Source of the DNA: an uncultured Actinomycetota bacterium
GTDB taxonomy: Bacteria; Actinomycetota; Thermoleophilia; Gaiellales; Gaiellaceae
Direction of reading: 5' to 3'
Assembly (NCBI GenBank): GCA_963828105.1
Contig: CAWHDF010000020.1
Coordinates: 17,392-81,391 of the forward strand
Length of the DNA stretch: 64,000 bases
The first letter of the stretch is position 1. Every line of letters begins with the position of its first letter. The notes below the pieces were generated by a model. That model worked only from the letters and a program-made list of their open reading frames with translations, had not been told where the DNA came from and searched no databases. Of this stretch, positions 1,895 to 27,636 are shown piece by piece. Position numbers and translations under genes: made by a program.

Positions 1895-3472
1895 ATGTCC
1901 AGAGGCGTAGCGGCCGTGCCGGCGCCTGAGGAAACCCGAGTCTCGCTGCCGGCGTCGCCTGGCCCGCTGCCGGCGAGGCGGGAGCTGCTGCGGGTGCGAC
2001 GGCGGCCGCTGGCCGTCCTGCTCGCCGTCGTGACGGTCGCCGTCGCGATCGTCGTCTTGCTCATGACGGGTGTGTTCGCAAGCGGTGGTTCGAGCACAGG
2101 CGGACTCGTTGACAACCCGTATCCAACCGCGGTCGCACGCGTGACGCGCCAGTCGTTGTCGCAACAAACCCAGGTGAGCGCGACGCTGACCTACGCTGGC
2201 TCGGCCACGATCGTCGCCCCTTCCGGGACCTCTCCGCCCGATCTGCTCCAGGCTCAGCAGCAGGTCACCAGCGACGAGGGCATGCTCGACGCAGCGAACG
2301 CGACGCTTACGAGCGACAGCGGTTCGCTCGCCCAACTCGAGGCGGATCTTGCGGCCGCCCGGGCGAAGGAGGCGGTCGACTGCGCGGGAGCGAACGCTGC
2401 CCAGACCGCCTCCGGCAGTTCCACGGGTGCGGATTCCGGCACAAGCGGATGCTCGTCGGATGTCCAGAATGTCACCACCGACGAGCAGAGCTTGACGCAG
2501 GATACGACCAAGGTTGCATCCGATCGGACACAGGTGTCCTCGGCCGCGGGTTCGCTGGCGGGTGCCGAGACCGCCCTGGCCGCGGCCGGAACGTCGGCAT
2601 CGCTCTACGGGCAGGACTCGACCTACACGACGCTCCCTGCGCTCGGCCAGATCGTGAAACGTGGGCAGTCCCTCTACGCCGTCAGCGGTAGCCCGGTCTT
2701 TCTGCTCTACGGCCAGACCGCGGCCTGGCGAGCGTTCGTGAGTGGAATGTCACCGGGCCCCGACGTCGCCGAGCTGAACGCGAACCTCGACGCCCTCGGC
2801 TACGGGAAGGGCCTCGCCGGCGACACCTTCACCCCGGCGAGCGCTACTGCGATCGAGGCGTTCCAGACAGCCCGCGGCGTTCCTCCGAGCGGACAGCTGC
2901 TGCTCGGCGCGGTTGTCTTCCAGCCGGGAGCCGTCCGCGTCACGAGCGTGACCCCGACACTGGGCGCAACCGTGCAGCCTGGGCCCGTCTTGACCGTCAC
3001 GTTGACGACGCGGCAGGTGCAGATCCAGCTCGACGCGGCGCTTCAGTCCGAGGTCAAGCTCGGCGACGCGGTCACGATCACCCTCCCGGACAACGAGAAC
3101 ACCCCCGGCGTCGTCTCGTACGTGGGGACCGTCGCGACGACGCCGTCGAACAACGGCGGCGGTGGAGGTTCGAGCAGTCCGACGATCAACGTGTATGTTA
3201 CCCCGACCGAGCCGGCGGCCACCGGGAGCCTCGACCAGGCCCCGGTGAACGTCTCGATTACGACCGCGAGCGTGAGCAACGTGCTCGTCGTACCTGTCGA
3301 TGCGCTGCTCGCGCTCGCGAGCGGCGGCTATGCAGTCGAGGAGATCGACACCGGCGGCATCCATCAGCTCGTCGGCGTGACGCTCGGGCTGTTCGATGAC
3401 GCCAACGGTGACGTCCAGGTGAGCGGCCCCGGTCTCGCCGCCGGCCAGCGCGTCGTGGTGCCCAACCTATGA
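1895..3472 (+). CDS. HlyD/MacA-type periplasmic adaptor with inserted peptidoglycan-binding (PG_binding_1-like) domain
   Basis: N-terminal TM, then a Q/A/S/T-rich coiled-coil region. PG-binding-like segment [37 protein letters not shown]-terminal beta-barrel-like region. The stop overlaps the next start (ATGA at 3469-3472). Confidence 0.8.
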
Positions 3473-4233
3473 CCATCGCGCTCCCGCAGCTCGCCGAGGC
3501 CGGTACGGGTGCCGACGCGTCCGGGTCGGCCGGCGCGACGCCCGTGCTCGAGCTCATCGAGGTGACGAAGCTCTACCCTGCCGAGCCTCCAGTCGCCGCC
3601 CTGGACGCCGTGAGCTTCGCGGTCTCCCGCGGGGAGCTCGTCGCGATCGTCGGTCCGTCGGGTTCGGGCAAGTCGACGCTCCTGCATCTGATGGGGACGC
3701 TCGACCGGCCGAGCTCTGGCACCGTGCGGATCACCGGTCTCGATGTCGCGGTGATGTCGGACCGGGAACTGTCGGCGCTCCGCGCAACCAGGATCGGTTT
3801 CGTCTTCCAGCAGTTCTTTCTCGCCGAACACGCGTCCGTGCTCGAGAACGTCGCCGACGGGCTGCTCTACGCAGGTGTCGGCGCCCCGACCAGACGCGAA
3901 CTCGCAGCCGAGGCGCTCGCGCGGGTCGGTCTCTCGCACCGCGCCCGGTTTCGTCCGACGCAGCTTTCGGGCGGCGAGCGCCAGCGAGTCGCGATCGCGC
4001 GCGCCCTCGTCGGCCAACCGGCGATCGTGCTCGCCGACGAACCGACGGGCAACCTCGATTCCGCCAACGGCGCGGCGATCGTCGCGCTGCTCGAGCAACT
4101 GCATGCCGAGGGAGCGACGATCGTCGTGATCACCCATGACCGCGACCTCGCCTCCCGGCTCCCCCGACAGGTCGAGATGCTCGACGGTCGTATCGTCACC
4201 GATAGCGCCCTGGCGGCGGGAAGTCCGCGATGA
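3469..4233 (+). CDS. ABC transporter ATP-binding protein, MacB/LolD-type
   Basis: Walker [10 protein letters not shown], signature [15 protein letters not shown], Walker [13 protein letters not shown]. Confidence 0.93.
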
Positions 4234-6548
4234 ACAGGCCGCAGAGGATTCACCGTCGCGCAATCCCCGTCGAGGGCAGCGCTGTCACTCGGCTCGGCGC
4301 CCTTCTGCTGGTCACGCTCGCCGGCGCCCTCGGTAGCCTCATGCCGGCCTCGGTCATTTCGGCGCAGGCCGACCCGAGCCCGGCGGTCACCACCTCCTCG
4401 TGCCCGGCGTCGAATCCGCCTGACGAGCTGACGCTTGCCGGCGGTAGCCCGCAGACAGCGAAGCTCGACTCCCCCTTTGCCTCGCCCTTCCAGGTCACGC
4501 TCGCGAACAGCAACGGCTGTCCGGTCACGACCGCGGTTGCAGGCACACCGGTCACGTTCACTGCGCCCGCGAACGGATCGAGCACCGCCAGTGGGGCATT
4601 CGCGGCGAGCGGGTCGAGCGCGGTCACCGTCGGCGCCGACGCGAGCGGAAACGCAGCGACGCCGACGTTCACGGCCAACGACATCGCCGGCAGCTACACC
4701 GTCACCGCGAGCTCGAGCTACGGCTCGGTCGCGTTCTCGCTCACGAACACCGCTGCCGGAATCGCCGTTTCGCTGACCCCGCAGGCGCCCCTCAGCGAGG
4801 CCGCGTTCACGAGCGCGCGCTACAACGAGCCGTTGCAGGTGGTCGTCCTTGACGCCAACGGGAACCCGGTCGAGGGGGCGGCCGTCACCTTCTCGCTCGG
4901 TTCGTCGGGGGGAGGCGGGACAGGGGCAGGAGCCGGTGCGTCGTCCCCGGCAGGCGCGACGTTCGCGACCGGCGACACGCAAGCCGCCGTGACGACGAAC
5001 GCATCGGGTCTGGCCGTCTCGCCGCTCTTCACCGCCAACGCCGAGCCGGGGGCGTTCAGCGCGAGCGCCGCGACCCCGGGTGTCGCTGAGCCCGCGATCT
5101 TCAAGCTCGACAACGTCGCCGGCAAACCGCCCGCGATCAGGCTCGTCGGAAGCTTGCGCCGCTCCGCCGTCGTCGGCGATCGTTACCGCGCGCCCCTCCA
5201 GGTCAGGGTTCTCGACGCCGCGGGCACGCCCGTTCAGGGCGCGACCGTCACCTTCGTGCTCGGCGCGGGCGCCGCTGGCTCGGGCGCGGGGGCCGCGGCC
5301 GGCTCGGGCGGCGGAGCGGCCGGAGCAAACTTCCTCGACGGCAGCACCCAGGCTACCGAGACGACGGGGCCGCGCGGTTTCGCCACCTCGCCGCTCTTCG
5401 TCGCGAATGGCAGCGCGGGCACGTTCACCGCGACCGTCGCGCTCGCGGGCAGGACGAACCCGCTGGCCGTGACGCTCGCAAACCTCGCGGGCAAACCCCC
5501 GGTGATCACGGCCCTCGGAGCAGCTCACGCGGCCGCGACGGTCGACACGCGCTACCGCCGGCCGCTCGCGGTCAAGGTTGTCGCGGCCGACGGCCTTCCC
5601 ATCGAAGGGATGACCGTGAGCTTCTCGCTCGGGACGGGCGGCGCCGGTGGATCGGGCGCAGGCGGCGCCTCGGGCTCCGCGGGAGCGAGCTTCCTCGGCG
5701 GAGCCAGCCAGGTGAGCGAGCCCACCAACGCGCATGGTGTCGCGTTCTCCCCGGCGTTCACCGCGGATGACACCCCGGGCGCGTTCACCGCGACCGCGTC
5801 GATCAGTGGTGTCTCGAACCCTGTGAGCTTTGGGCTCGACAATCTTGCGGCCAAGCCACCTGTGATCAGGGCAGAGGGACCGCTGCCGCGGTCGGCAACC
5901 GTCGGCGGCCGCTTCCCGCAACCGCTGCGGGTTAGGGTTGTAGCCGCCGACGGGAGGCCGGTACAGGGCACGAGTGTCACCTTTACGCTCGGTGGCTCCG
6001 GTGCCGGGGCCGCCGCGTCCGGGTCGTCGGGTAGCGCGGGGGCGTCCTTCGTCGGCGGTGGGGGCTCGGCGAGTGAGACGACCAACGCAGCCGGCGTGGC
6101 CGTCTCGCCGGCGTTCACGGCCAACACCGTTGCCGGCGCTTTCACGGCGAGCGCCTCGGCGCCGGGCACGGCTGCGGTCGCGAACTTCCCACTGCGCAAC
6201 CTCGCCGGCCGGGCGACGTCGCTCACTGTCGGAGCGGCAGGGAGCGAACAGACGACCGTGAACACACGCTTCCCGATCCTCCTCGCCGTCACCGTCAAGG
6301 ACGCCGACGGCAACCCCGTCGCAGGTGCGGTCGTCACGTTCACCGCCCCGAGCCGCGGCGCGAGTGGCCGCTTCGCGGCTCCCGGGGCCGGCCGCCACGT
6401 CGCGCGTGTCAGGACGAACAGTGACGGGATCGCGTTGGCGCCGCCGTTCGGCGCCAACCACCAGGCCGGGGGATACGTTGTCAAGGCGGCGGTCAGGGGC
6501 GCCGCGGTGGTTGCGTTCGCGCTCGTCAACCAGCCGCCCGGCCCGTGA
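4230..6548 (+). CDS. Secreted protein of about seven Big_1/invasin-like Ig repeats, embedded in the ABC operon
   Basis: Signal peptide ([23 protein letters not shown]). Roughly 100-aa repeats of the form YRxPLxVxVxDAxGxPVxGxxVTFxLG...ATSPxFTAN..GxFTA, with G/A/S-rich loops. ATGA overlap with the ATPase and GTGA overlap with the permease. Confidence 0.8.
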
Positions 6549-7750
6549 CGGCGACACCGGCTCTCTCCCCCAAGCGCCTCCACCCGGGCGACCTCGCGCG
6601 CGTCGCGAGCGTCGGCGTGCGTACGCGTCGCCTCCGTGCCGGGCTGTCGGCGCTCGGGATCGCGATCGGTGTCGCAGCGATCGTTGCCGTGCTCGGCCTT
6701 TCGTCCTCGTCCAAGGCAGGGCTGCTCGCCGAGATCGACAAGCTCGGCACGAACCTGTTGACCGTCACAACCGGTCAGACGCTCTTCGGCGGGACGGCCG
6801 AGCTGCCCCTGGCTGCGCCCGGGATGATCGGCCGCATCGGGCCGGTCGCCGAGGTTGCCGACACCGGCTCGACGAGCGTGAACGTCTACCGGAGTCCGCT
6901 CATCCCGTCGGTCAACACCAATGCGCTCAGCGTGCAGGCGGCGACACTCGGGCTGCTCCCCGTGGTCGGCTCGACCGTCGCGCAGGGGTCGTTTCTGAAC
7001 GCCGCGACGGCAACCGAGCCGGTCTGCGTGCTCGGGGCACAGGCGGCGCAGCTGCTCGGGATCGACCGCGTGTATCCCGGACTGCGTGTCTGGCTGGGAG
7101 GGATGTGGTTCTACGTCACCGGCATCCTCACCTCCGCCGCACTCGCGCCCGAGATTGACTCAAGCGTCCTCGTCGGATTCCCCGCCGCCGACAAGTACCT
7201 CGGGCTCGACGGTCACCCGACGACGATCTACGTCCGTACGGTCACGAGCCAGACGCAGGCCGTCTACAACGTGCTGGCAGCCACTGCCAATCCCGAAGAC
7301 CCAAGCGAAGTGGATGTGAGCCAGCCGTCCGCCGCGCTTACCGCGCGTGCCGACGCGCAGGGCGCGCTCAACGGGCTCTTCCTCGGCCTCGGAGCGGTGT
7401 CTCTGCTCGTCGGTGCGGTCGGGGTCGCGAACATCATGATCATCAGCGTGCTCGAACGTCGGAGCGAGATCGGGCTGCGGCGGGCGCTCGGCGCCACGAA
7501 GGGTCACATCCGCACCCAATTTCTCGGCGAGGCGATCCTGCTGGCGCTGCTCGGCGGTGCCGTCGGCGTAATTCTCGGCATTGTCGCGACCGGCGTTTAC
7601 GCGCACACCAAACACTGGGCGACCGTCATCCCGACCCTCGCCTGGGCCGGCGGACTCGGGGCCGCATTCGCGATCGGCGCGATCGCGGGCCTCCTCCCGG
7701 CCATCCGGGCCGCGCGCCTCTCCCCGACCGACGCGCTCCGAACAGTCTGA
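6545..7750 (+). CDS. ABC transporter permease, MacB/FtsX-type with extracytoplasmic domain
   Basis: 401 aa. An N-terminal TM, a large extracytoplasmic domain and three C-terminal TMs. FtsX-like segment IMIISVLERRSEIGLRRALGATKGHI. Confidence 0.9.
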   Translation: MTATPALSPKRLHPGDLARVASVGVRTRRLRAGLSALGIAIGVAAIVAVLGLSSSSKAGLLAEIDKLGTNLLTVTTGQTLFGGTAELPLAAPGMIGRIGPVAEVADTGSTSVNVYRSPLIPSVNTNALSVQAATLGLLPVVGSTVAQGSFLNAATATEPVCVLGAQAAQLLGIDRVYPGLRVWLGGMWFYVTGILTSAALAPEIDSSVLVGFPAADKYLGLDGHPTTIYVRTVTSQTQAVYNVLAATANPEDPSEVDVSQPSAALTARADAQGALNGLFLGLGAVSLLVGAVGVANIMIISVLERRSEIGLRRALGATKGHIRTQFLGEAILLALLGGAVGVILGIVATGVYAHTKHWATVIPTLAWAGGLGAAFAIGAIAGLLPAIRAARLSPTDALRTV

Positions 7751-7889: not shown

Positions 7890-8702
7890 GTGACGTTCGT
7901 GATCTGCCGTACCTGTGGCGTCGAGCATCCGTCCGGCGCGGCACGCTGCGCAATCTGCTCCGACGAGCGCCAGTGGGTGCCCGTTGCGGGACAGGCCTGG
8001 GCGACGCTTGCCGAGCTTCGCGCAGCGGGGACGACTGTCGCGATGGCGGAGCTCGAGCCCGGCTTACTCGGCGTCTCGGCGCTCCCCGGTGTCGGCATCG
8101 GTCAGCAGTCGAAGCTGCTCGTGACGGCGTACGGCTCGCTGCTCTGGGATCCGATCGGCTACGTCGACGAGGCGGCGGTCGCGTCGATCCTGGCGCACGG
8201 CCCGGTCATGGCCGTCGCCGCCAGCCATCCGCACATGTTCGGTGTCCAGGTCGAATGGAGCCGACGACTCGGTGGGGTGCCGGTCTACGTTTCGGCGGCC
8301 GATCGTCGCTGGGTCGCGCGTCGCGATACCGCGATCACCACCTGGTCGGGAACTCACGAGCCGCTTCCCGGGGTGACCCTGAAGCAGGTCGGCGGCCACT
8401 TCCCCGGTAGCGCCGTCGTCCATTTCATCGCGCCCGACGGGAAGGGAGTCTTGCTCTCGAGCGACAGCGTCTACGTGAATCCTGATCGAGTCTCCGTCTC
8501 CTTCATGCGGAGCTTTCCGAACCACATCCCACAGTCGGCGGCCGTGGTCGAGCGGATTGTGAAGGCGCTCGACGGATACGCCTACGACCGTATCTACGGC
8601 AACTTTCTGAGCTCGATCGCTGAGCGCGGACGTGAGCTCGTCCAGCGTTCGGCGGCTCGTCACCTTGCCTGGGTGAGAGGCGAGCATGACGACCTGACCT
8701 GA
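7890..8702 (+). CDS. MBL-fold-like protein with N-terminal Cys4 zinc-ribbon
   Basis: CRTCGVEH...CAICSDER ribbon and a degenerate metallo-beta-lactamase-like core (ASHPHMF). The start was moved to in-frame GTG 7890, because the upstream part of ORF 7581..8702 is low-complexity R/P/S sequence overlapping the permease 3' end. Confidence 0.55.
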   Translation: MTFVICRTCGVEHPSGAARCAICSDERQWVPVAGQAWATLAELRAAGTTVAMAELEPGLLGVSALPGVGIGQQSKLLVTAYGSLLWDPIGYVDEAAVASILAHGPVMAVAASHPHMFGVQVEWSRRLGGVPVYVSAADRRWVARRDTAITTWSGTHEPLPGVTLKQVGGHFPGSAVVHFIAPDGKGVLLSSDSVYVNPDRVSVSFMRSFPNHIPQSAAVVERIVKALDGYAYDRIYGNFLSSIAERGRELVQRSAARHLAWVRGEHDDLT

Positions 8703-8792
8703 GCGTCCCGGAGAGTCGGTCCGAGACTTGCCACGTTGCCTCGCGTGCCGACGGTCGCGCCGCATTCGGTGCAGTTCTGCCGCGACGAACCC

Positions 8793-8829
8793 GGTCGACA
8801 GGGCGGGGTTCGAGGCTCGCCTGTCGACC
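8793..8829. terminator. GC-rich hairpin between convergent genes (candidate bidirectional terminator)
   Basis: GGTCGACAGG ... CCTGTCGACC forms a perfect 10-bp stem. It lies between the MBL-like gene stop (8702) and the micro-ORF stop (8842). Confidence 0.4.
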
Positions 8830-8841
8830 GGTCGCCCGCTG

Positions 8842-8919
8842 TTAGCAGCAGCTGCCGTTGCCGCAGCCACAGCCGCAGCCGCAGTCGCACTCCAATCTCA
8901 GCACGGATCCTCCCTTCAT
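8842..8919 (-). CDS. Cys/Gly-rich micro-protein (25 aa from ATG, 20 aa if GTG start), metallothionein-like candidate
   Basis: My own translation gives MKGGSVLRLECDCGCGCGCGNGSCC*, with 7 Cys in the last 15 residues. The internal AAGGGAGGA sequence would serve as a Shine-Dalgarno for the in-frame GTG. It is divergent from the ArsR-family gene and is below the size cut-off of the ORF track. Confidence 0.5.
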   Translation of the reverse strand: MKGGSVLRLECDCGCGCGCGNGSCC

Positions 8920-8965
8920 CGATAGACATCGATAAATACGATACGTGCTATATTGATAGACGTCA
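8920..8965. promoter_or_regulatory. AT-rich divergent intergenic region with two short palindromes (candidate ArsR/SmtB operators)
   Basis: TCGAT-AGAC-ATCGA and ATTGA-TAGACG-TCAAT both contain GATAGAC. This is the only AT-rich stretch in the neighbourhood, and it sits between the micro-ORF and the ArsR-family gene. Confidence 0.4.
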
Positions 8966-9295
8966 ATGAAGGGAATTCCCGTACTCCAGCCGATCTGCTG
9001 CGTCAGTGATGTGCCGGTCATGCAGCCCAACGCGGCAGCCGATCTCGCCGCCACCTTCAAGGCTCTCGCCGACCCGACGCGTGTCGCGATCGTCAACCGG
9101 CTCTCGACGGCGGACTCCGTGTGTGTCTGTGACCTGACGGCGGCCTTCGAGCTGTCGCAGCCGACGATCTCGCACCATCTACGGATCCTGCGCGAGGCCG
9201 GGATCGTCGCGGCGGAGCGCCGCGGGACTTGGGCGTACTACAGGCTCGAACCGTCCGCGATCACCGCGCTACGGTCGGTGTTCGGCGGCGAATGA
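8966..9295 (+). CDS. ArsR/SmtB-family metal(loid)-responsive transcriptional repressor
   Basis: ALADPTRVAIVNRL, a CVCDL (alpha3 Cys pair) motif, and the wHTH segment LSQPTISHHLRILREAGIV. Confidence 0.9.
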   Translation: MKGIPVLQPICCVSDVPVMQPNAAADLAATFKALADPTRVAIVNRLSTADSVCVCDLTAAFELSQPTISHHLRILREAGIVAAERRGTWAYYRLEPSAITALRSVFGGE

Positions 9296-9417
9296 GCGAG
9301 ACGCCGCAGGTTCAGCTCGTCCGGGATGCGTCCAGCGAGGACCTCGCCGCCGTCCGCCCGCTCACTGACGCACTCAATCAGCGCCGGCAGACGCTCCTCG
9401 CCGAACTGCTTTGCTGA
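9292..9417 (+). CDS. 41-aa ORF coupled at both ends; resembles the N-terminus of a GNAT (possible relic or small protein)
   Basis: The ATG overlaps the ArsR stop (ATGA at 9292-9295). Its TGA overlaps the next ATG (TGATG at 9415-9419). The sequence MSETPQVQLVRDASSEDLAAVRPL looks like GNAT beta1-alpha1. Confidence 0.35.
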   Translation: MSETPQVQLVRDASSEDLAAVRPLTDALNQRRQTLLAELLC

Positions 9418-9920
9418 TGCGCCCGGGCGCGCAAATCCTGATCGCCCCGCTCGAGTCGCGGCACTGGGATGCGGTCGCCCGCATCTATTGCGAAGGGCTC
9501 GCCACCGGTAACGCAGCTTTCGAGACTCGTGCTCCGAGCTGGGAGGACTGGGACCGAGGCTACGCCCAGGAGCTTCGTTTCGTTGCCCTTCGCGACGACG
9601 AGGTAGTCGGTTGGGCCGCGCTCGCTCCCGTCTCCGACCGCTGCACCTACGGCGGCGTCGCCGAGTGCTCGGTGTACGTCGCACAGGCCGCACGGGGTCA
9701 GGGCGTTGGGCGCAGCCTGCTCGCCGAACTCATCGTCGCATCCGAGAGTGCCGGGATCTGGACGATCCAAGCCGGCGTCTTTCCCGAGAACCAGGCGAGC
9801 CTGCGCCTGCATGCCGGCGCCGGCTTCCGTGTCATCGGTACGCGAGAGCGGCTCGGCAAGCGCGACGATGTCTGGCGTGACGTCGTCTTCCTCGAGCGCC
9901 GAAGTCCGAACGTCGGCTGA
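9417..9920 (+). CDS. GNAT N-acetyltransferase of the phosphinothricin acetyltransferase (PAT / ArsN1-like) type
   Basis: ARIYCEGLATGNAAFETRAPSWEDW and QAARGQGVGRSLL motifs, with a PAT-like length (about 167 aa). It lies downstream of the ArsR gene in the same operon. Confidence 0.8.
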   Translation: MRPGAQILIAPLESRHWDAVARIYCEGLATGNAAFETRAPSWEDWDRGYAQELRFVALRDDEVVGWAALAPVSDRCTYGGVAECSVYVAQAARGQGVGRSLLAELIVASESAGIWTIQAGVFPENQASLRLHAGAGFRVIGTRERLGKRDDVWRDVVFLERRSPNVG

Positions 9921-10142: not shown

Positions 10143-10835
10143 TCAGCTGAAGCTGTGGTTGACGAGCGTCGCGAGCCGGGTTGTCAGGTTCGCGAGCAAC
10201 GTCTGCTCACGCTGCGACGTGAGCTTGCCCGCGCTCACCGCCTTGTCGAGCTGTGTTTGTACAGCGCTCTCGACCGCCTGCTCAAGACCGGCAGTGCTCT
10301 TTCCGTTCGTCGCCGCAATCTCCGCCAGGGTTTGGCCCGAACGGAGATCGGAGCGCAGCTGCTGGGCCGTCACGCCGAGGTATCCGGCGCTAAGGCGGAC
10401 GACGGCAACCCGTAGACGGGCCGCAAGCCGCAGCCGCGCCACGGGGTGGGTGACGTTGACGAGCGCATCGAGGCGTGCGCTCAGGCGGGCAAGCCGCGTC
10501 TGTTCGGCCGCGCTGCTCAGCTTGCCTGCTGCGACGGCGTTGTCGAGTCGCGTCTGTGCGGCGCTCAGCACTGCCTGCTCGAGGCTGCTCGCTGTCTGGC
10601 CGTTCGCGCTCGCGATCTGAGCGAGCGTTTCGCCACTTCCGAGGTCGCTCCGAAGCTGCTGCGCGCTGATCCCGAGCTCCGCCGTGAGCGCGCTCACGAT
10701 CGCCCCGCCGGGCGTGCCTGCCGCGCTCTGCGACGAGGTCGCGGCGTAGGCAGCGCTGCTGCCCGCGGCCAGCGCGAGCGCCACGACCCCGAGCACGAGC
10801 CCGCGCGAGGAGCGGAGAAGTGATGGCATACGCAT
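10143..10835 (-). CDS. Secreted protein built from two ~95-aa tandem repeats (unknown function), last gene of an RR-HK operon
   Basis: GAGGTGAGGAAG RBS before ATG 10835. Signal peptide MRMPSLLRSSRGLVLGVVALALAAGSSAAYA. Repeat pattern LGxxAQQLRSDLxSGxTLAxIAxxNGxxxxxLEQAVxSAxQTxLDxAVxAGKL appears twice. Confidence 0.7.
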   Translation of the reverse strand: MRMPSLLRSSRGLVLGVVALALAAGSSAAYAATSSQSAAGTPGGAIVSALTAELGISAQQLRSDLGSGETLAQIASANGQTASSLEQAVLSAAQTRLDNAVAAGKLSSAAEQTRLARLSARLDALVNVTHPVARLRLAARLRVAVVRLSAGYLGVTAQQLRSDLRSGQTLAEIAATNGKSTAGLEQAVESAVQTQLDKAVSAGKLTSQREQTLLANLTTRLATLVNHSFS

Positions 10836-10962: not shown

Positions 10963-12300
10963 CTAGGCGCGTGGAAGTGTGACGGAGAAGCGGGCGCCTC
11001 CGCCGGCTCGCTGCGCTGCCTCGATGTGTCCGCCGTGGGCGCGCACGAGCTCGGCGGCGACGGCGAGGCCGACGCCACTGCCCGGGGTGTCTCGAGCCGA
11101 GCGGCCGCGCCAGAAGCGCTCGAACACGTGGGGGGCCTCGTCTTCGGCGAGCCCGGGGCCATTGTCCTCGACGACGAGCTGGGCCTCTCCGCCGACAGGG
11201 GCGACCGAGATCGTGACGGTGCCGCCGCGGGGCGTGAACTTGAGTGCGTTGCCGAGGAGGTTGCGAGCGATCTGCCCGAGCCGAGCAGGATCGGCGTCGA
11301 CGTTGACGGGTTCGAAGTGCGTGGCGAGCTCGAGCCCGGCGGCGAGCGCCTGCGGCTCGATCTGCGTGACGGCCTCGCGTGCCAGCTCCGATAGGTCGAC
11401 GCGCTCGCGGCGAAGCCTGAACCGCGCCCCTTCCGCGGCGGCGAGGGTCTCGACGTCCTCGACGATTCGCGCCAGCCGGAGCGTCTCTTCGTGCAGCGAG
11501 CGAAGCCGTTGCGGCGTTGGCTCCTGGACGCCGTCGACAAGCGCTTCGAGCTCGGCCTGAGCGATCGCGAGCGGAGTACGAAGCTCGTGTGCGACGTCGG
11601 TCGCGAAGGCGCGCCGTAGCGCGTCCTCATGTTCGATCGTCTGCGCCATCGCGTCGAACGCACGGCCGAGCTCACCGAGCTCAGCCGGTTCCGACCCGCC
11701 GCCCGCGCGGGCGGCGCGATCGCCGGCCGCGAGCGAGCGGGCGGCCGTGGTCAGCCGGCGCAGCGGTCGCGTGATCCGACGCGCAAAGACCGTGCCGAGC
11801 ACTGCTGCGAGCACGGCGGCCAGCGCGCCGCCGATGAGCAATGTCCGTTCGACCGCACGGCGCAGTCTGCGCTCTGCAAGAGGCGTGTTCCGCGGGAAGC
11901 GAAGCCTCGCGGTTCCGACCCGGCTCCCGCCTGAGCGAATCGCCACCATCGTCGCGGAGGCGAGTGCCACCCCGGCCAGCCGCGCGGCGCGCACGTGCTC
12001 GAGGGCCGCGTCGGAGGCGCCGTCACCCCGAACCGACGTGCCGGTCGGGCCGACCACGACGAGCGTCGCGCCGCTTCGAGCAGCCAGTAGCTCGGCGGGG
12101 TAGAGATCGGCCCGCCCCCAGGATCCGGCCGAGGTGTATTCGGCGCCGAGCACCGCCGCGACGTCCTGGGTCGTGGCCGCCTGCCGCGCCGCGGCAAGGC
12201 GCGAGAGCTGGCGGCCGGTCGTACGCCAGGTCAGGCCGCCGAGGAGAACGACCGCGAGCAGGACGACGGCGGCGAATGCCGCCGCAAGCCGGCTAGCCAT
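10963..12300 (-). CDS. Sensor histidine kinase (HAMP-HisKA-HATPase_c)
   Basis: Two TMs, H-box AHELRTPLAIA, G-box GSGVGLAVA. Overlaps the upstream response-regulator stop. Confidence 0.9.
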   Translation of the reverse strand: MASRLAAAFAAVVLLAVVLLGGLTWRTTGRQLSRLAAARQAATTQDVAAVLGAEYTSAGSWGRADLYPAELLAARSGATLVVVGPTGTSVRGDGASDAALEHVRAARLAGVALASATMVAIRSGGSRVGTARLRFPRNTPLAERRLRRAVERTLLIGGALAAVLAAVLGTVFARRITRPLRRLTTAARSLAAGDRAARAGGGSEPAELGELGRAFDAMAQTIEHEDALRRAFATDVAHELRTPLAIAQAELEALVDGVQEPTPQRLRSLHEETLRLARIVEDVETLAAAEGARFRLRRERVDLSELAREAVTQIEPQALAAGLELATHFEPVNVDADPARLGQIARNLLGNALKFTPRGGTVTISVAPVGGEAQLVVEDNGPGLAEDEAPHVFERFWRGRSARDTPGSGVGLAVAAELVRAHGGHIEAAQRAGGGARFSVTLPRA

Positions 12301-12988
12301 CGCGGCTCAGCCCGAGCCGGTAGCCGCCGCCGAGCACGGTCTCGACGATCAACGGGGCGTGGGGGTTGCGCTCGAGCTTTCGGCGTAGGTTCTTCACGTG
12401 CGAGTCGATTGTTCGCTCGTAGCCGTCGAACTCGTACCCGCGCGCCTGCTGGACGAGCTCGAAACGCGAAAAGACCCTTCCCGGCGTGCCCGAGAGCGCA
12501 ACGAGGATGCCCCATTCGGTTGGTGTCAACGCGACCGGCGCGCCGCGCACGGCGACCTCCCGCCGTTGCTCGTCGAGTGTCAGCTCGCCCTGGCCAAAGG
12601 ACTGCGGGCCGAGCGAATCGGGGCTGCGTCCGCGGCGGACGATCGCCTGCGCGCGCAGCACGAGCTCGCGGGGACTGAAGGGTTTCGAGACGTAGTCGTC
12701 CGCGCCGAGCTCGAGCCCGTGCACACGATCCTCCTCGCCGACACGGGCCGTAAGCACGAGCACCGGCACGTCGGATGCCGCGCGCACCGCGCGCAGCACC
12801 TCGTCGCCGGGCACGTCGGGCAAGCCCAGATCGAGCACCACGAGGTCCAGAGGTCGCGAGCGCGCTACCTCGATCGCCTCTGCTCCCGAGGCGGTCGTGA
12901 AGACCGAAAAGCCCGCGCGCTCGAGATAGTCGCGCAGGAGCTCGCGCAGCTTCCGCTCATCCTCGACCACGAGCACGGTCCGGGCCAC
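12293..12988 (-). CDS. OmpR/PhoB-family response regulator
   Basis: Receiver domain (VLVVEDE...DLVVLDLGLPD) plus a winged-helix trans_reg_C domain (VKNLRRKLE...TVLGGGYRL). Confidence 0.93.
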   Translation of the reverse strand: MARTVLVVEDERKLRELLRDYLERAGFSVFTTASGAEAIEVARSRPLDLVVLDLGLPDVPGDEVLRAVRAASDVPVLVLTARVGEEDRVHGLELGADDYVSKPFSPRELVLRAQAIVRRGRSPDSLGPQSFGQGELTLDEQRREVAVRGAPVALTPTEWGILVALSGTPGRVFSRFELVQQARGYEFDGYERTIDSHVKNLRRKLERNPHAPLIVETVLGGGYRLGLSRDG

Positions 12989-26811: not shown

Positions 26812-27636
26812 TCAGGGCGCGTGCTCGCGGATCGTCTGCCACGAATCCCAGCTGATCTTGAGGATCACGAGCGTGATCGCGAGGCCGATCAGTGGGTCTG
26901 CGAGGCGCAGCCCGAGCCCGACGGCGGCAGCGCTTACGAGCACGCCGAGTGAAACGAAGGCGTCGATGCGCGCGTGCTGCCCGTCGGCGATCAGCGCCCG
27001 GCTTGAAAGCCTTCGGCCGCCGCGGAGGCGAACCCGGGCCGCAAGCTCGTTGCCGAGGAACCCGACCGCCCCTGCGGCCGCTAGCACCCAGAGACGACTC
27101 AGCGCCTCCGGGTGGACGAGACGGTCGATCGTCTCGTAGAGCGCAACGAGCGCGCTGATCAGGATTGCGCCGACAACCGCGAGCCCGGCAAGGCGCTCGG
27201 CGCGGGCGGAGCGGAGATAGAAGGCAGCCCCGAGCGGGAGCGCCGTGAGGCTGTCGCCGTAGTTGTGAATGAGGTCTGCGAGCAACGCGACGCTTCCGGT
27301 CGTCAAAAAGATGACCGTCTGTGCGCCGGCCGCGCCCAGCAGAATCAGCAGGCTGATCGAGACGGCTCTGACGCCTTCGCGGGACTCGACGATGCTGCGG
27401 TCGACGAGGCCGTGGGTATGTCCGTGCCCCGCAGCAGCTGAGCTTTCGTGCTCGTGCTCGTGCTCGTGCCCGTGCCCGTGGATCCCCGAATGCAGATGCG
27501 CGTGGCCGTGCTCGGCGCTTGCGGCGAGCACGCGCGACTGCCGCGGGAGGAGCAGGTGGCGATGCGCCCCCGCGAAGGGGTGGGTGTGCACCGCGGCTCC
27601 GTGACGATGCCAGCCGTCGGCGTTGGGGCCGCTCAC
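26812..27636 (-). CDS. Cation diffusion facilitator (CDF) transporter, short form with His-rich N-terminus
   Basis: HGHAHLHSGIHGHGHEHEHEHE...GHGHTHG tail. TM core with SVALLADLIHNYGDS and ALIADGQHARIDAF motifs. It ends right after TM6, so no C-terminal cytoplasmic domain is visible. The start at in-frame GTG 27636 is tentative. Confidence 0.75.
   Translation of the reverse strand: MSGPNADGWHRHGAAVHTHPFAGAHRHLLLPRQSRVLAASAEHGHAHLHSGIHGHGHEHEHEHESSAAAGHGHTHGLVDRSIVESREGVRAVSISLLILLGAAGAQTVIFLTTGSVALLADLIHNYGDSLTALPLGAAFYLRSARAERLAGLAVVGAILISALVALYETIDRLVHPEALSRLWVLAAAGAVGFLGNELAARVRLRGGRRLSSRALIADGQHARIDAFVSLGVLVSAAAVGLGLRLADPLIGLAITLVILKISWDSWQTIREHAP
27447..27480. repeat. Hexanucleotide tandem repeat (CGTGCT x3, CGTGCC x2) encoding the (His-Glu)n/(His-Gly)n tract of the CDF
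   Basis: cgtgctcgtgctcgtgctcgtgcccgtgcccgtg read directly from the sequence. Confidence 0.8.

Follow-up and report, generated by a model that had tools for sequence, protein, structure and literature searches.

A cysteine-rich micro-ORF divergent from arsR

We analysed a 64-kb stretch of DNA (64,000 nucleotides; hereafter 'the window') from an uncultured Gaiellaceae bacterium of the Actinomycetota (contig CAWHDF010000020.1, assembly GCA_963828105.1), and describe here a short Cys-rich open reading frame—the 'micro-ORF'—that is divergent from arsR, a gene encoding a repressor of the ArsR/SmtB family. Reading the minus strand of 8842–8919, we recover the same 25 codons that had originally been predicted (ATG AAG GGA GGA TCC GTG CTG AGA TTG GAG TGC GAC TGC GGC TGC GGC TGT GGC TGC GGC AAC GGC AGC TGC TGC TAA), together with their translation, MKGGSVLRLECDCGCGCGCGNGSCC, and its seven Cys within the final 15 residues. 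This is the highest density of Cys per 15 residues in any of the six frames of the window, which has a G+C content of 68%; the runners-up reach 6 in 15, and lie off-frame inside long ORFs. The tract is of low complexity, with an 18-nt repeat family at 8845–8889. The next most Cys-dense translated tracts, at 27419–27511 (+) and 12751–12837 (-), have at most 6 Cys per 15 residues and are found inside long overlapping ORFs, where they resemble off-frame readings of real genes.

The spacer between the ATG of the 25-codon reading and that of arsR (8920–8965) is 46 bp long and, at 37% G+C, AT-rich as described beforehand; its two 16-nt palindromes, ATCGATAGACATCGAT (8918–8933) and ATTGATAGACGTCAAT (8952–8967), are the sole two matches to ATYGA-N6-TCRAT in the window, with 0.1 expected by chance. 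On the far side, the identity of the divergent regulator is borne out by matches to PF01022 (HTH_5 winged helix; E = 1.5e-18) and NF033788 (106 bits, cutoff 55); the protein carries a CC motif at residues 11–12 as well as the expected CVC, located at residues 53–55 in alpha-3.

Two start codons had been put forward for the micro-ORF: the ATG of the 25-codon form and, as an alternative, an in-frame GTG behind a Shine-Dalgarno (SD) sequence, giving a product of 20 amino acids. A comparison of reading frames in 70 related loci (see below) upholds the second and not the first. The start codons in these loci are ATG in 58, GTG in nine and TTG in three, with AAGGAGG or GGGAGG (the type found in the window) positioned 4–9 nt before the start in 68 of the 70 and nearly invariant in the alignment. 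An ATG further upstream is in frame with the SD-proximal start in 30 loci, out of frame in another 30 and absent from 10; in those with an out-of-frame ATG, TGA stands at that point in the frame of the peptide. The conserved string is TCGATGAA(A)GGAGG, and the ATG within it falls in an operator half-site, TCGATGAA. Given that this ATG sits within the conserved half-site and shares the frame in no more than 30 of the 70 loci, we have rejected it as a start and assign the window product as the 20-residue peptide read from GTG 8904: (f)M-LRLECDCGCGCGCGNGSCC, with seven Cys (also written MLRLECDCGCGCGCGNGSCC; a 6-Cys relative is MRGECCDGCCGGTGCC). The codons for 'MKGG' in the longer version are then best read as the ribosome-binding site, the SD AAGGGAGG corresponding to its 'AAG GGA GG'.

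The micro-ORF is also, as claimed, unannotated: when 10 variants of the peptide were looked up as exact strings in a collection of 15 billion predicted proteins, none was present (0/10), and the ORF is left uncalled by the gene predictions of the three public records that cover the window's own locus.

Conservation of the micro-ORF and its peptide family

Our comparison set consists of 80 loci encoding close relatives of the window's ArsR (59–77% identity), taken from Gaiellales, Gaiellaceae and Thermoleophilia genomes; counts out of 80 refer to the 79 fetched loci with upstream sequence plus the window itself, one fetched locus having no upstream sequence on its contig. Alongside these, we scanned metagenome contigs for a signature made up of the operator half-site and SD, TCGA-N6-TCGATGAARGGAGG, which at least 120 contigs matched. 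The lack of a conserved ORF in orthologous intergenic regions had been named as counting against the original prediction, and the opposite is what we see: 73 of the 80 genome loci have, divergent from their arsR orthologue, a Cys-rich ORF of 12–26 codons, with the two start codons usually 50–67 nt apart (40–91 nt at the extremes), and 106 of the 120 metagenome contigs listed have a Cys-rich ORF directly downstream of the signature. Two of the listed contigs have arsM at this point, the remaining matches being apparent chance matches or damaged copies. In total, at least ~180 loci from different species have an intact SD, start and stop.

The genome-locus peptides are nearly all distinct from one another (68 of 70) and are nonetheless constant in composition, with 62 of the 70 ending in Cys-Cys-stop. 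When the genome and metagenome sets are pooled, there are at least 156 distinct peptides, 12–26 amino acids in length (median 17), containing 4–9 Cys each (mode 6) and made up of 38% Cys, 19% Gly, 17% Asp and 3% Glu. A vicinal CC pair is found in every one of the 156, and a CC-stop end in 140; the spacing from Cys to Cys is 0 in 170 cases, 1 in 97 and 2 in 33. Taken together, Cys, Asp/Glu and Gly account for 77% of residues, the remainder being mostly Ser, Ala, Pro, Thr and Arg and largely N-terminal; alternating (Cys-Asp/Glu) runs occur in 27 peptides, and the segment preceding the first Cys is just 1–7 residues long. Aromatic residues and His are scarce (3 and 6, respectively, among the 1307 residues of family peptides, with His thus below 0.5%), and the peptides are acidic (median net charge -2) and Lys-poor; that of the window has no His at all.

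At the nucleotide level, differences within groups of identical Cys pattern fall at codon positions 1/2/3 in the ratio 55/46/118, and Cys columns are retained via a TGC<->TGT change in 33 of 184 pairwise comparisons. As read from this conservation as a whole, selection acts on the peptide and not on the DNA repeat, and the micro-ORF is almost certainly a real protein-coding gene. The opposing view, that the Cys codons arose by chance from a repeat of the GCAGCC type, or else are a decaying and functionless 5' remnant of arsM, can point to the low complexity of the tract with its 18-nt repeats, and to the presence of arsM, with a similar N-terminal Cys tract, in the same slot in some relatives. 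Set against the intact SD, start and stop in so many loci and sequences, the rarity of damaged copies, the bias of changes towards the third codon position and the retention of the CC-stop end, it is in our view effectively refuted. Among the metagenome loci, one (L105) seems to hold the micro-ORF of another (L119) in frameshifted form, and a further locus (L127) has an unrelated flank.

Several individual loci deserve mention. Two arsR/micro-ORF modules are present in the same metagenome-assembled genome (MFD02134.bin.2.211; L006 and L015), encoding the peptides MRLATGCDCGADCDCGSDCDCGCC and MRLATDCDCGADCDCGADCDCGCC, which differ at two positions; paralogous copies therefore exist. Micro-ORFs of the MACCDCDCSGGCCC type are also paired with a divergent subclade of ArsR (MKKLRVLEQPCCAPG...EVCTCNL..., ~125 aa, with a C-terminal extension; L090, L104, L114, L126, L135, L138, L171, L179 and L190), the pairing therefore reaching past the immediate orthologue group. 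In L180 (~6900–7000), a transposase-like ORF takes the place of arsR beside an intact micro-ORF.

The family has so far been seen only in Gaiellales/Thermoleophilia and in soil metagenomes. Plasmids and loci of Rhodococcus, Streptomyces, Mycobacterium avium and Pseudonocardia carry a related arsR and boxes, with no micro-ORF in the four inspected; on this small sampling, the family may be restricted to Gaiellales/Thermoleophilia.

Operators, promoters and the transcription unit

Moving across the intergenic region from micro-ORF to arsR, we see a fixed order of elements in the 70 aligned sequences: the micro-ORF start, SD, a first inverted repeat (box 1), a spacer of either 0 or ~20 nt, TAnATT, and a second inverted repeat (box 2). 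The aligned consensus of box 1 is TTCATCGA-N6-TCGATG and that of box 2 yATTGA-N6-TCrATGAA, with the ATG of arsR inside it. In the window (coordinates in Table 1), box 1 abuts the SD and overlies the predicted region of transcription start for the micro-ORF, with the upstream ATG (8917–8919) in its outer half-site; box 2 extends over the arsR ATG (8966) and also, on the opposite strand, over TTGACG, the -35-like element of the putative micro-ORF promoter. This promoter-like element, TTGACG-17-TATCGT, is the sole sigma-70-like site in 8600–9100 (0.0 expected in shuffles), and its predicted -10 lies >20 nt upstream of the start codon; an equivalent TTGACr-17-TAnCGT or TATAGT element is visible in the intergenic alignment. 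On the arsR side, the position of the -10-like TAnATT is such that the leader of the arsR mRNA would be very short or absent. Plasmids of M. avium, Rhodococcus and Streptomyces also have inverted repeats of the box 1 type ahead of arsM/arsR. ArsR is the predicted sensor for, and repressor of, both divergent promoters, and we consider it highly probable that the micro-ORF is under its control.

At the other end of the micro-ORF, the stop codon is closely followed by a G+C-rich hairpin with a folding energy of -31.4 kcal/mol (z = -3.06) and arms that are 100% complementary; comparable G+C-rich hairpins, of other sequences, begin 3–10 nt after the stop in most related loci. A scan for consensus terminators found none, because the hairpin is without a T-run. 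In 55 of the 70 loci the gene that follows is convergent, and this is often ychF, its stop 36–60 nt away; downstream genes on the same strand are rare and heterogeneous (PPOX-like, adenosine deaminase, PstS, GNAT, PfkA). From the hairpin and from these convergent or heterogeneous neighbours, we therefore take the micro-ORF to be a monocistronic gene with a likely terminator hairpin, and not a leader. In the window, a ~270-aa protein encoded at ~7896–8702 (+), convergent on the micro-ORF, carries two CxxC motifs near its N-terminus (CxxC...CxxC, ICRTCGVEHPSGAARCAICSDE) and matches neither Pfam nor NCBIfam.

These observations bear on a quite different explanation, namely that the ORF is a sensory leader, in which pausing of ribosomes on Cys codons, once the pools of Cys or thiols run low, controls terminator read-through or a downstream gene, or that the locus specifies a regulatory or antisense RNA. 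Cys-rich micro-ORFs of mycobacteria do act as leaders (bioRxiv 10.1101/834739), and a hairpin so close to the stop could be masked by a ribosome halted at the terminal CC codons. There is, however, no conserved downstream gene to be controlled; the ORF is led by an SD rather than leaderless, has no Cys-metabolism genes nearby, and shows conservation of its Gly/Asp spacing and CC-stop end at the level of the peptide. A search of 8600–9100 against Rfam likewise matched no family, yielding two sub-threshold chance matches (to eukaryotic microRNA and C/D-box small nucleolar RNA families). We have rejected the leader-peptide/attenuator idea on synteny, and regard the explanation as a whole as very improbable.

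A predicted four-cysteine sensor

The four Cys of the regulator (residues 11, 12, 53 and 55) are invariant in 81/81 ArsR orthologues, 40 of which have an extra Cys before the CVC motif, giving CCVC. Its closest relative in the PDB is the CadC-like Lmo1102, with further matches to SmtB and to Corynebacterium CgArsR (6j0e), the alignment to the latter beginning at query residue 11 and chain residue 15. In CgArsR the As(III) site is formed by Cys15-Cys16 plus Cys55' ('Type 3'), and a vicinal CC with a third Cys makes up the As(III) ligand set of both AfArsR and CgArsR (PMC11868830). The Type 3 pattern, in which two vicinal Cys near the N-terminus are joined by one Cys in or close to alpha-3, can be recognised in the window ArsR; the 'Type 1' site of R773 (Cys32-Cys34-Cys37, CVCDLC) cannot, its third Cys being absent from the window motif, CVCDLT. 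Judged on sequence alone, a site of this kind could sense As(III)/Sb(III) or Cd/Pb.

An arsenic context, with arsM in the same slot

Maps of neighbouring genes were drawn with a gene caller based on third-position G+C content (GC3), and only recurrent, family-confirmed clusters were used; the caller gave spurious antisense ORFs (clusters c11 and c12) and missed the window's own GNAT gene. The recurrent partners near arsR are ArsC-like, MIP and ArsM proteins. By motif scan, an LMWP-type ArsC motif is present in 41 of the 80 genome loci and 49 of the 120 metagenome loci listed, and one locus (L088) has the order micro-ORF<>arsR-MIP-arsC. No P-type ATPase, CDF or other cation-efflux gene is recurrent beside arsR in the neighbour clusters. 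In cultivated actinomycetes, the relatives of this ArsR show its CC + CVC signature and have promoters with boxes of its type; their clusters read arsR-ACR3-arsC (Rhodococcus), arsM<>arsR-aquaporin-arsC (Streptomyces) and arsM<>arsR (M. avium). In the window itself, the ArsN1-like acetyltransferase gene downstream of arsR, although it scores below the cutoff of its family, points the same way.

The same neighbourhoods can be asked about natural products. Short and rich in Cys, and with its C-terminal CC conserved, the peptide might be the precursor of a modified natural product or cofactor, akin to a ribosomally synthesised and post-translationally modified peptide (RiPP), many precursors of which are unannotated; or it might be a thiol/redox reserve unrelated to metal. 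But no gene for a radical-SAM enzyme, cyclodehydratase, lanthionine synthetase, protease or exporter is recurrent nearby, the few residues before the first Cys provide no leader for enzyme recognition, and control by an ArsR of the arsenic type would be left unexplained. If anything, we find this a shade less credible than the sensory leader.

In four genome loci (L027, L032, L041 and L051, ~2170–3000) and at least two metagenome loci (L095 and L100), arsM replaces the micro-ORF behind matching boxes and TCGATGAAAGGAG, with homologous flanks; the slot arsM scores 294 bits against NF008823, above the cutoff of 263. The ArsM proteins of Gaiellales have N-termini with expanded Cys tracts (SCCGDDCCGS, GCGCSGPSCCEENGCCG) that resemble the micro-peptides, where the Streptomyces ArsM (L082) has a C-terminal CC-x3-CC...GCGC tail instead. 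No similarity is demonstrable at the DNA level between the micro-ORF and the Cys tract of arsM. An origin of the micro-ORF by truncation of arsM was considered and not retained: the flanks are homologous but no similarity could be demonstrated in the DNA of the payload, and the swap may have gone in either direction.

This likeness to the ArsM Cys tract could also be read as the mark of an As(III) carrier or feedback element, either handing arsenite on in the manner of ArsD (to ArsM, to ArsC-coupled steps or to an exporter) or acting as a buffer that competes with ArsR and so tunes or resets the switch. Metallochaperones and ArsRs do use vicinal Cys pairs for As(III), and the occurrence, in many loci, of arsR and the peptide gene alone under the boxes is what a regulatory loop predicts. 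No conserved partner protein is encoded nearby, however; the extreme variability of the peptides argues against a specific protein-protein interface, and arsM and the micro-ORF alternate in the slot rather than co-occurring. We think a carrier or feedback role unlikely.

In many loci the boxes are associated with arsR and the micro-ORF only, in housekeeping surroundings (sigma factor, ychF, EamA transporter and others); these being the sole genes at the boxes, the peptide is the obvious output of the switch, in the way that SmtA is that of SmtB (PMC8790569). As to what throws it, As(III) is the likely inducer because the regulator clade and its boxes control arsM, ACR3, arsC and aquaporin genes elsewhere. 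It is context, in other words, that decides for arsenic rather than Zn, Cd or Cu, and on this footing we hold induction by As(III) to be reasonably probable.

An arsenite-sequestering peptide as the favoured reading

The reading we favour, with a probability of roughly 0.55, is that arsR and the micro-ORF form a two-gene divergent module in which an ArsR-repressed, As(III)-inducible thiol peptide would sequester arsenite. That the peptide works as a chelator is, taken as a proposition in itself, slightly better than an even bet. More generally, the module appears to pair a metal(loid)-regulated thiol chelator with an ArsR/SmtB repressor, the chelators making up a large and previously unseen peptide family that would lie outside known families.

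Without metalloid, dimers of ArsR would occupy the two 6-N6-6 inverted repeats and repress both promoters; occupancy of box 1 would cover the region of transcript start for the micro-ORF, and that of box 2 its -35 as well as the -10 and start of arsR. As(III), and probably Sb(III), would be bound by the thiolates of Cys11-Cys12 and Cys53/Cys55, upon which ArsR would leave the DNA. The transcript then made would be a short monocistronic mRNA, consisting of a ~25–35-nt leader, the strong AAGGGAGG ribosome-binding site, the 20-codon ORF and the hairpin terminator. Its product, an acidic peptide with seven thiols, would bind As(III) in three-sulfur sites at ~2 As per peptide, six Cys accommodating two As, and free cytosolic arsenite would thereby be buffered. 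Seen in this way, the peptide would correspond, in gene-encoded form, to phytochelatin or metallothionein, and would alternate with arsM as the payload of an ArsR-controlled slot. On chemical grounds, a Lys-free and net-negative peptide should suit neutral As(III)S3 better than anionic M(II)S4 clusters.

A number of points weigh against the sequestration of arsenite. Within 3 kb, some half of the loci show no ars gene besides arsR, and a crude motif scan of the window found no arsC, arsM or ACR3, an absence that is weak evidence; the ArsN1-like gene is the one other recognisable ars gene in the window. Specificity for As(III) is argued from genomic context, that is, through guilt by association, and both the promoter elements and the assignment of the boxes to ArsR are made at the level of consensus. 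The four-Cys sensor resembles the Cd/Pb site of CadC-type regulators, in keeping with its best match in the PDB; the acidic, Lys-poor composition is atypical of classical metallothioneins; and instability or ready oxidation may be a problem for peptides of such small size.

Some of these same points lend themselves to the main rival, a metallothionein system of the classical kind that serves a soft metal cation (Cd, Pb, Zn or Cu(I)), in which ArsR would be a sensor of the CadC/SmtB type and the peptide would form metal-thiolate clusters. An N-terminal Cys together with CVC in alpha-3 is the 'alpha-3N' arrangement of CadC; the top matches in the PDB are CadC-like Lmo1102 and SmtB; the layout as a divergon is like that of smtB-smtA; metallothioneins for Cu(I) and Cd typically contain CxC and CC motifs; and about half of the loci lack a nearby ars gene. 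What counts against it is that the recurrent partners are ArsC-like, MIP and ArsM proteins and not cation-efflux systems, that relatives sharing the Cys signature and boxes control ars operons, that the site of CgArsR, which is of the As(III) type, has its match in the vicinal CC pair, and that acidic peptides without Lys and His disfavour, by chemical reasoning, anionic M(II)S4 clusters. We consider a cation system unlikely, if a little less so than the carrier or feedback element.

Returning to the arsenite-sequestering peptide, it is tempting to extend it to the order at large: Gaiellales might use a gene-encoded, phytochelatin-like peptide of ~16–20 residues as a main output of arsenic defence, with a minimal ars system made up of ArsR and the peptide, the latter interchangeable with arsM at the same promoter. 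This broader proposal is a tentative one, to which we give somewhat less than even odds.

Features of the locus and neighbouring genes

Table 1. Positions of the micro-ORF, arsR and associated elements in the window
Feature	Position	Strand	Description
Micro-ORF coding sequence	8842..8904	-	GTG start 8904-8902, 20 codons, TAA stop 8844-8842
Shine-Dalgarno AAGGGAGG	8909..8916	-	4 nt before GTG 8904
Hairpin, G+C-rich, likely terminator	8785..8839	-	starts 3 nt after stop; perfect 12-bp arms 8820-8831 / 8791-8802
Box 1, predicted ArsR operator	8915..8934	.	inverted repeat TTCATCGA-TAGACA-TCGATA
Promoter-like site of micro-ORF	8938..8966	-	TTGACG 8966-8961, 17-nt spacer, TATCGT 8943-8938
TAnATT, -10-like element of arsR	8949..8954	+	overlaps box 2; conserved in nearly all 70 aligned intergenic regions
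Box 2, predicted ArsR operator	8951..8970	.	inverted repeat TATTGA-TAGACG-TCAATGAA
arsR	8966..9295	+	109-aa ArsR/SmtB repressor, Cys11, Cys12, Cys53, Cys55
arsR operon partners, probable	9292..9920	+	41-aa ORF 9292-9417; GNAT 9411/9417-9920; overlapping stop/start codons

Downstream of arsR, the 41-aa ORF, MSETPQVQLVRDASSEDLAAVRPLTDALNQRRQTLLAELLC, shares bases with the arsR stop at one end (ATGA) and with the acetyltransferase start at the other (TGATG); it is called as a gene in the JGI/ENA records of the locus, and belongs to no Pfam family. This arrangement suggests a translationally coupled arsR-orf41-GNAT operon, whose genes would be transcribed together. The GNAT protein has as its best match ArsN1a (NF040503, arsinothricin resistance), at 127 bits and below the cutoff of 170, making its gene a possible organoarsenical-resistance gene within the arsR operon.

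Further afield, 4230–6548 (+) encodes a protein of 772 aa, rich in Ala, Gly and Thr, whose N-terminus is signal-like and which contains internal repeats of ~100 aa; a MacB/FtsX-type permease (6545–7750) is encoded directly downstream. An ORF at 10143–~10900 (-), which contains several repeats of a ~45-aa unit ('..AQQLRSDL.SG.TLAQIA..NG...LEQAV.SA.QT.LD.AV..GKL..') and has no Pfam match, adjoins a histidine kinase/response regulator pair at 10963–12988.

Implications

Full-text searches of the literature returned no description of such peptides in ars loci or next to arsR. If the broader proposal for Gaiellales holds, this would be the first natural family of ribosomally made chelator peptides dedicated to As(III) in bacteria, and its members would be among the smallest known gene products of the metallothionein type, invisible to all current annotation. 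Our favoured reading, if correct, would add an uncatalogued component to the ars regulon, a direct, gene-encoded thiol sink that stands beside or instead of efflux, reduction and methylation. Gaiellales are an abundant and almost uncultured order of soil actinobacteria, common in soils and paddy fields, and a 60-nt gene is invisible to current annotation pipelines; the way in which arsenic resistance and retention are judged from soil metagenomes would change accordingly, were the reading true. For chemists, >150 minimal As(III)-binding sequences would then form a natural library, and the ArsR-operator-chelator arrangement a compact natural cassette for bioremediation or biosensors, a counterpart of engineered synthetic phytochelatins. 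The micro-ORF would serve, besides, as an example of a functional bacterial micro-protein found from position and composition alone, with unusually strong comparative support.

Comparison with known systems

The likeness to smtB-smtA that had been proposed for the locus is well founded as regards layout, since the operator region, with its two palindromes, lies between the micro-ORF and the divergent gene for an ArsR/SmtB repressor. In smtB-smtA of Synechococcus PCC 7942, the genes for repressor and chelator are likewise divergent, with two inverted repeats between them and derepression upon binding of metal (PMC8790569). Common to both, then, is a repressor of the ArsR/SmtB family, set divergently from the gene for a small Cys-rich chelator, putative in the present case, across a short, two-repeat operator-promoter region. 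SmtA itself is ~56 aa in length and holds a Zn4 cluster through Cys and His ligands in a zinc-finger-like fold, SmtB sensing through an alpha-5 site of His/Asp/Glu. Here, by contrast, the peptides are 12–26 aa, with that of the window lacking His and too short for the SmtA fold; the sensor is all-Cys; the repeats are 6-N6-6 and not 12-2-12; and the context is one of arsenic, not zinc. Relative to either SmtA or MymT, the micro-peptide is 2–4 times shorter, acidic, His-free (in the window) and ends in CC.

The description 'metallothionein-like' stands for size, Cys content and Cys motifs, but not for membership of a family, no metallothionein family model having been matched: Pfam returned no match for seven family peptides at E <= 10, nor NCBIfam for two of them at E <= 0.01. 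Of the features by which metallothioneins are recognised, the peptides have a low mass (12–26 aa), a Cys content (38%) in line with the ~15–35% or more expected, few aromatics, and motifs from among CxC, CC and CxxC, with CC in all of them. The term probably describes a mode of action, then, and not a family. Among eukaryotes, the copper metallothionein (Cu-MT) of Neurospora crassa has 25–26 aa and seven Cys, and is regulated by Cu through transcriptional activators. The micro-peptide resembles such fungal Cu-MTs in size, Cys count, CxC motifs and Gly/Ser spacers; there is no detectable relationship in sequence, however, and the fungal proteins are not acidic and are without a terminal CC.

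Phytochelatins offer a partial likeness of another kind, in that Cys, an acidic residue and Gly dominate in both, at 77% of residues in the micro-peptides, and phytochelatins chelate As(III). They are made enzymatically, by phytochelatin synthase, with gamma-glutamyl bonds, whereas each of the present peptides has an ORF of its own, complete with SD, start and stop. Closer in this respect is the ribosomally encoded (Glu-Cys)20-Gly ('EC20'), which raised arsenic resistance in E. coli and has been built into an ArsR-controlled operon (PMC4611968). EC20 is artificial, whereas the micro-peptides are natural and alpha-linked, rich in vicinal CC, and end in CC.

Within the Actinomycetota, the polycysteine small ORFs of mycobacteria are also unannotated Cys-rich micro-ORFs with consecutive Cys codons; they are leaderless, form the first cistron of Cys-metabolism operons, act as ribosome-pausing attenuators, and are, like the micro-ORF, conserved by position and not by sequence (bioRxiv 10.1101/834739). 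Of four features that characterise these attenuators, the micro-ORF has one, a run of at least two consecutive Cys codons, and lacks the other three; it has instead a strong SD, a monocistronic arrangement with its own likely terminator, a place beside arsR, and conservation at the level of the peptide. Finally, the N- or C-terminal Cys tracts of ArsM and the vicinal-Cys sites of ArsR and ArsD are parts of larger proteins; here, the tract is the whole of the gene product.

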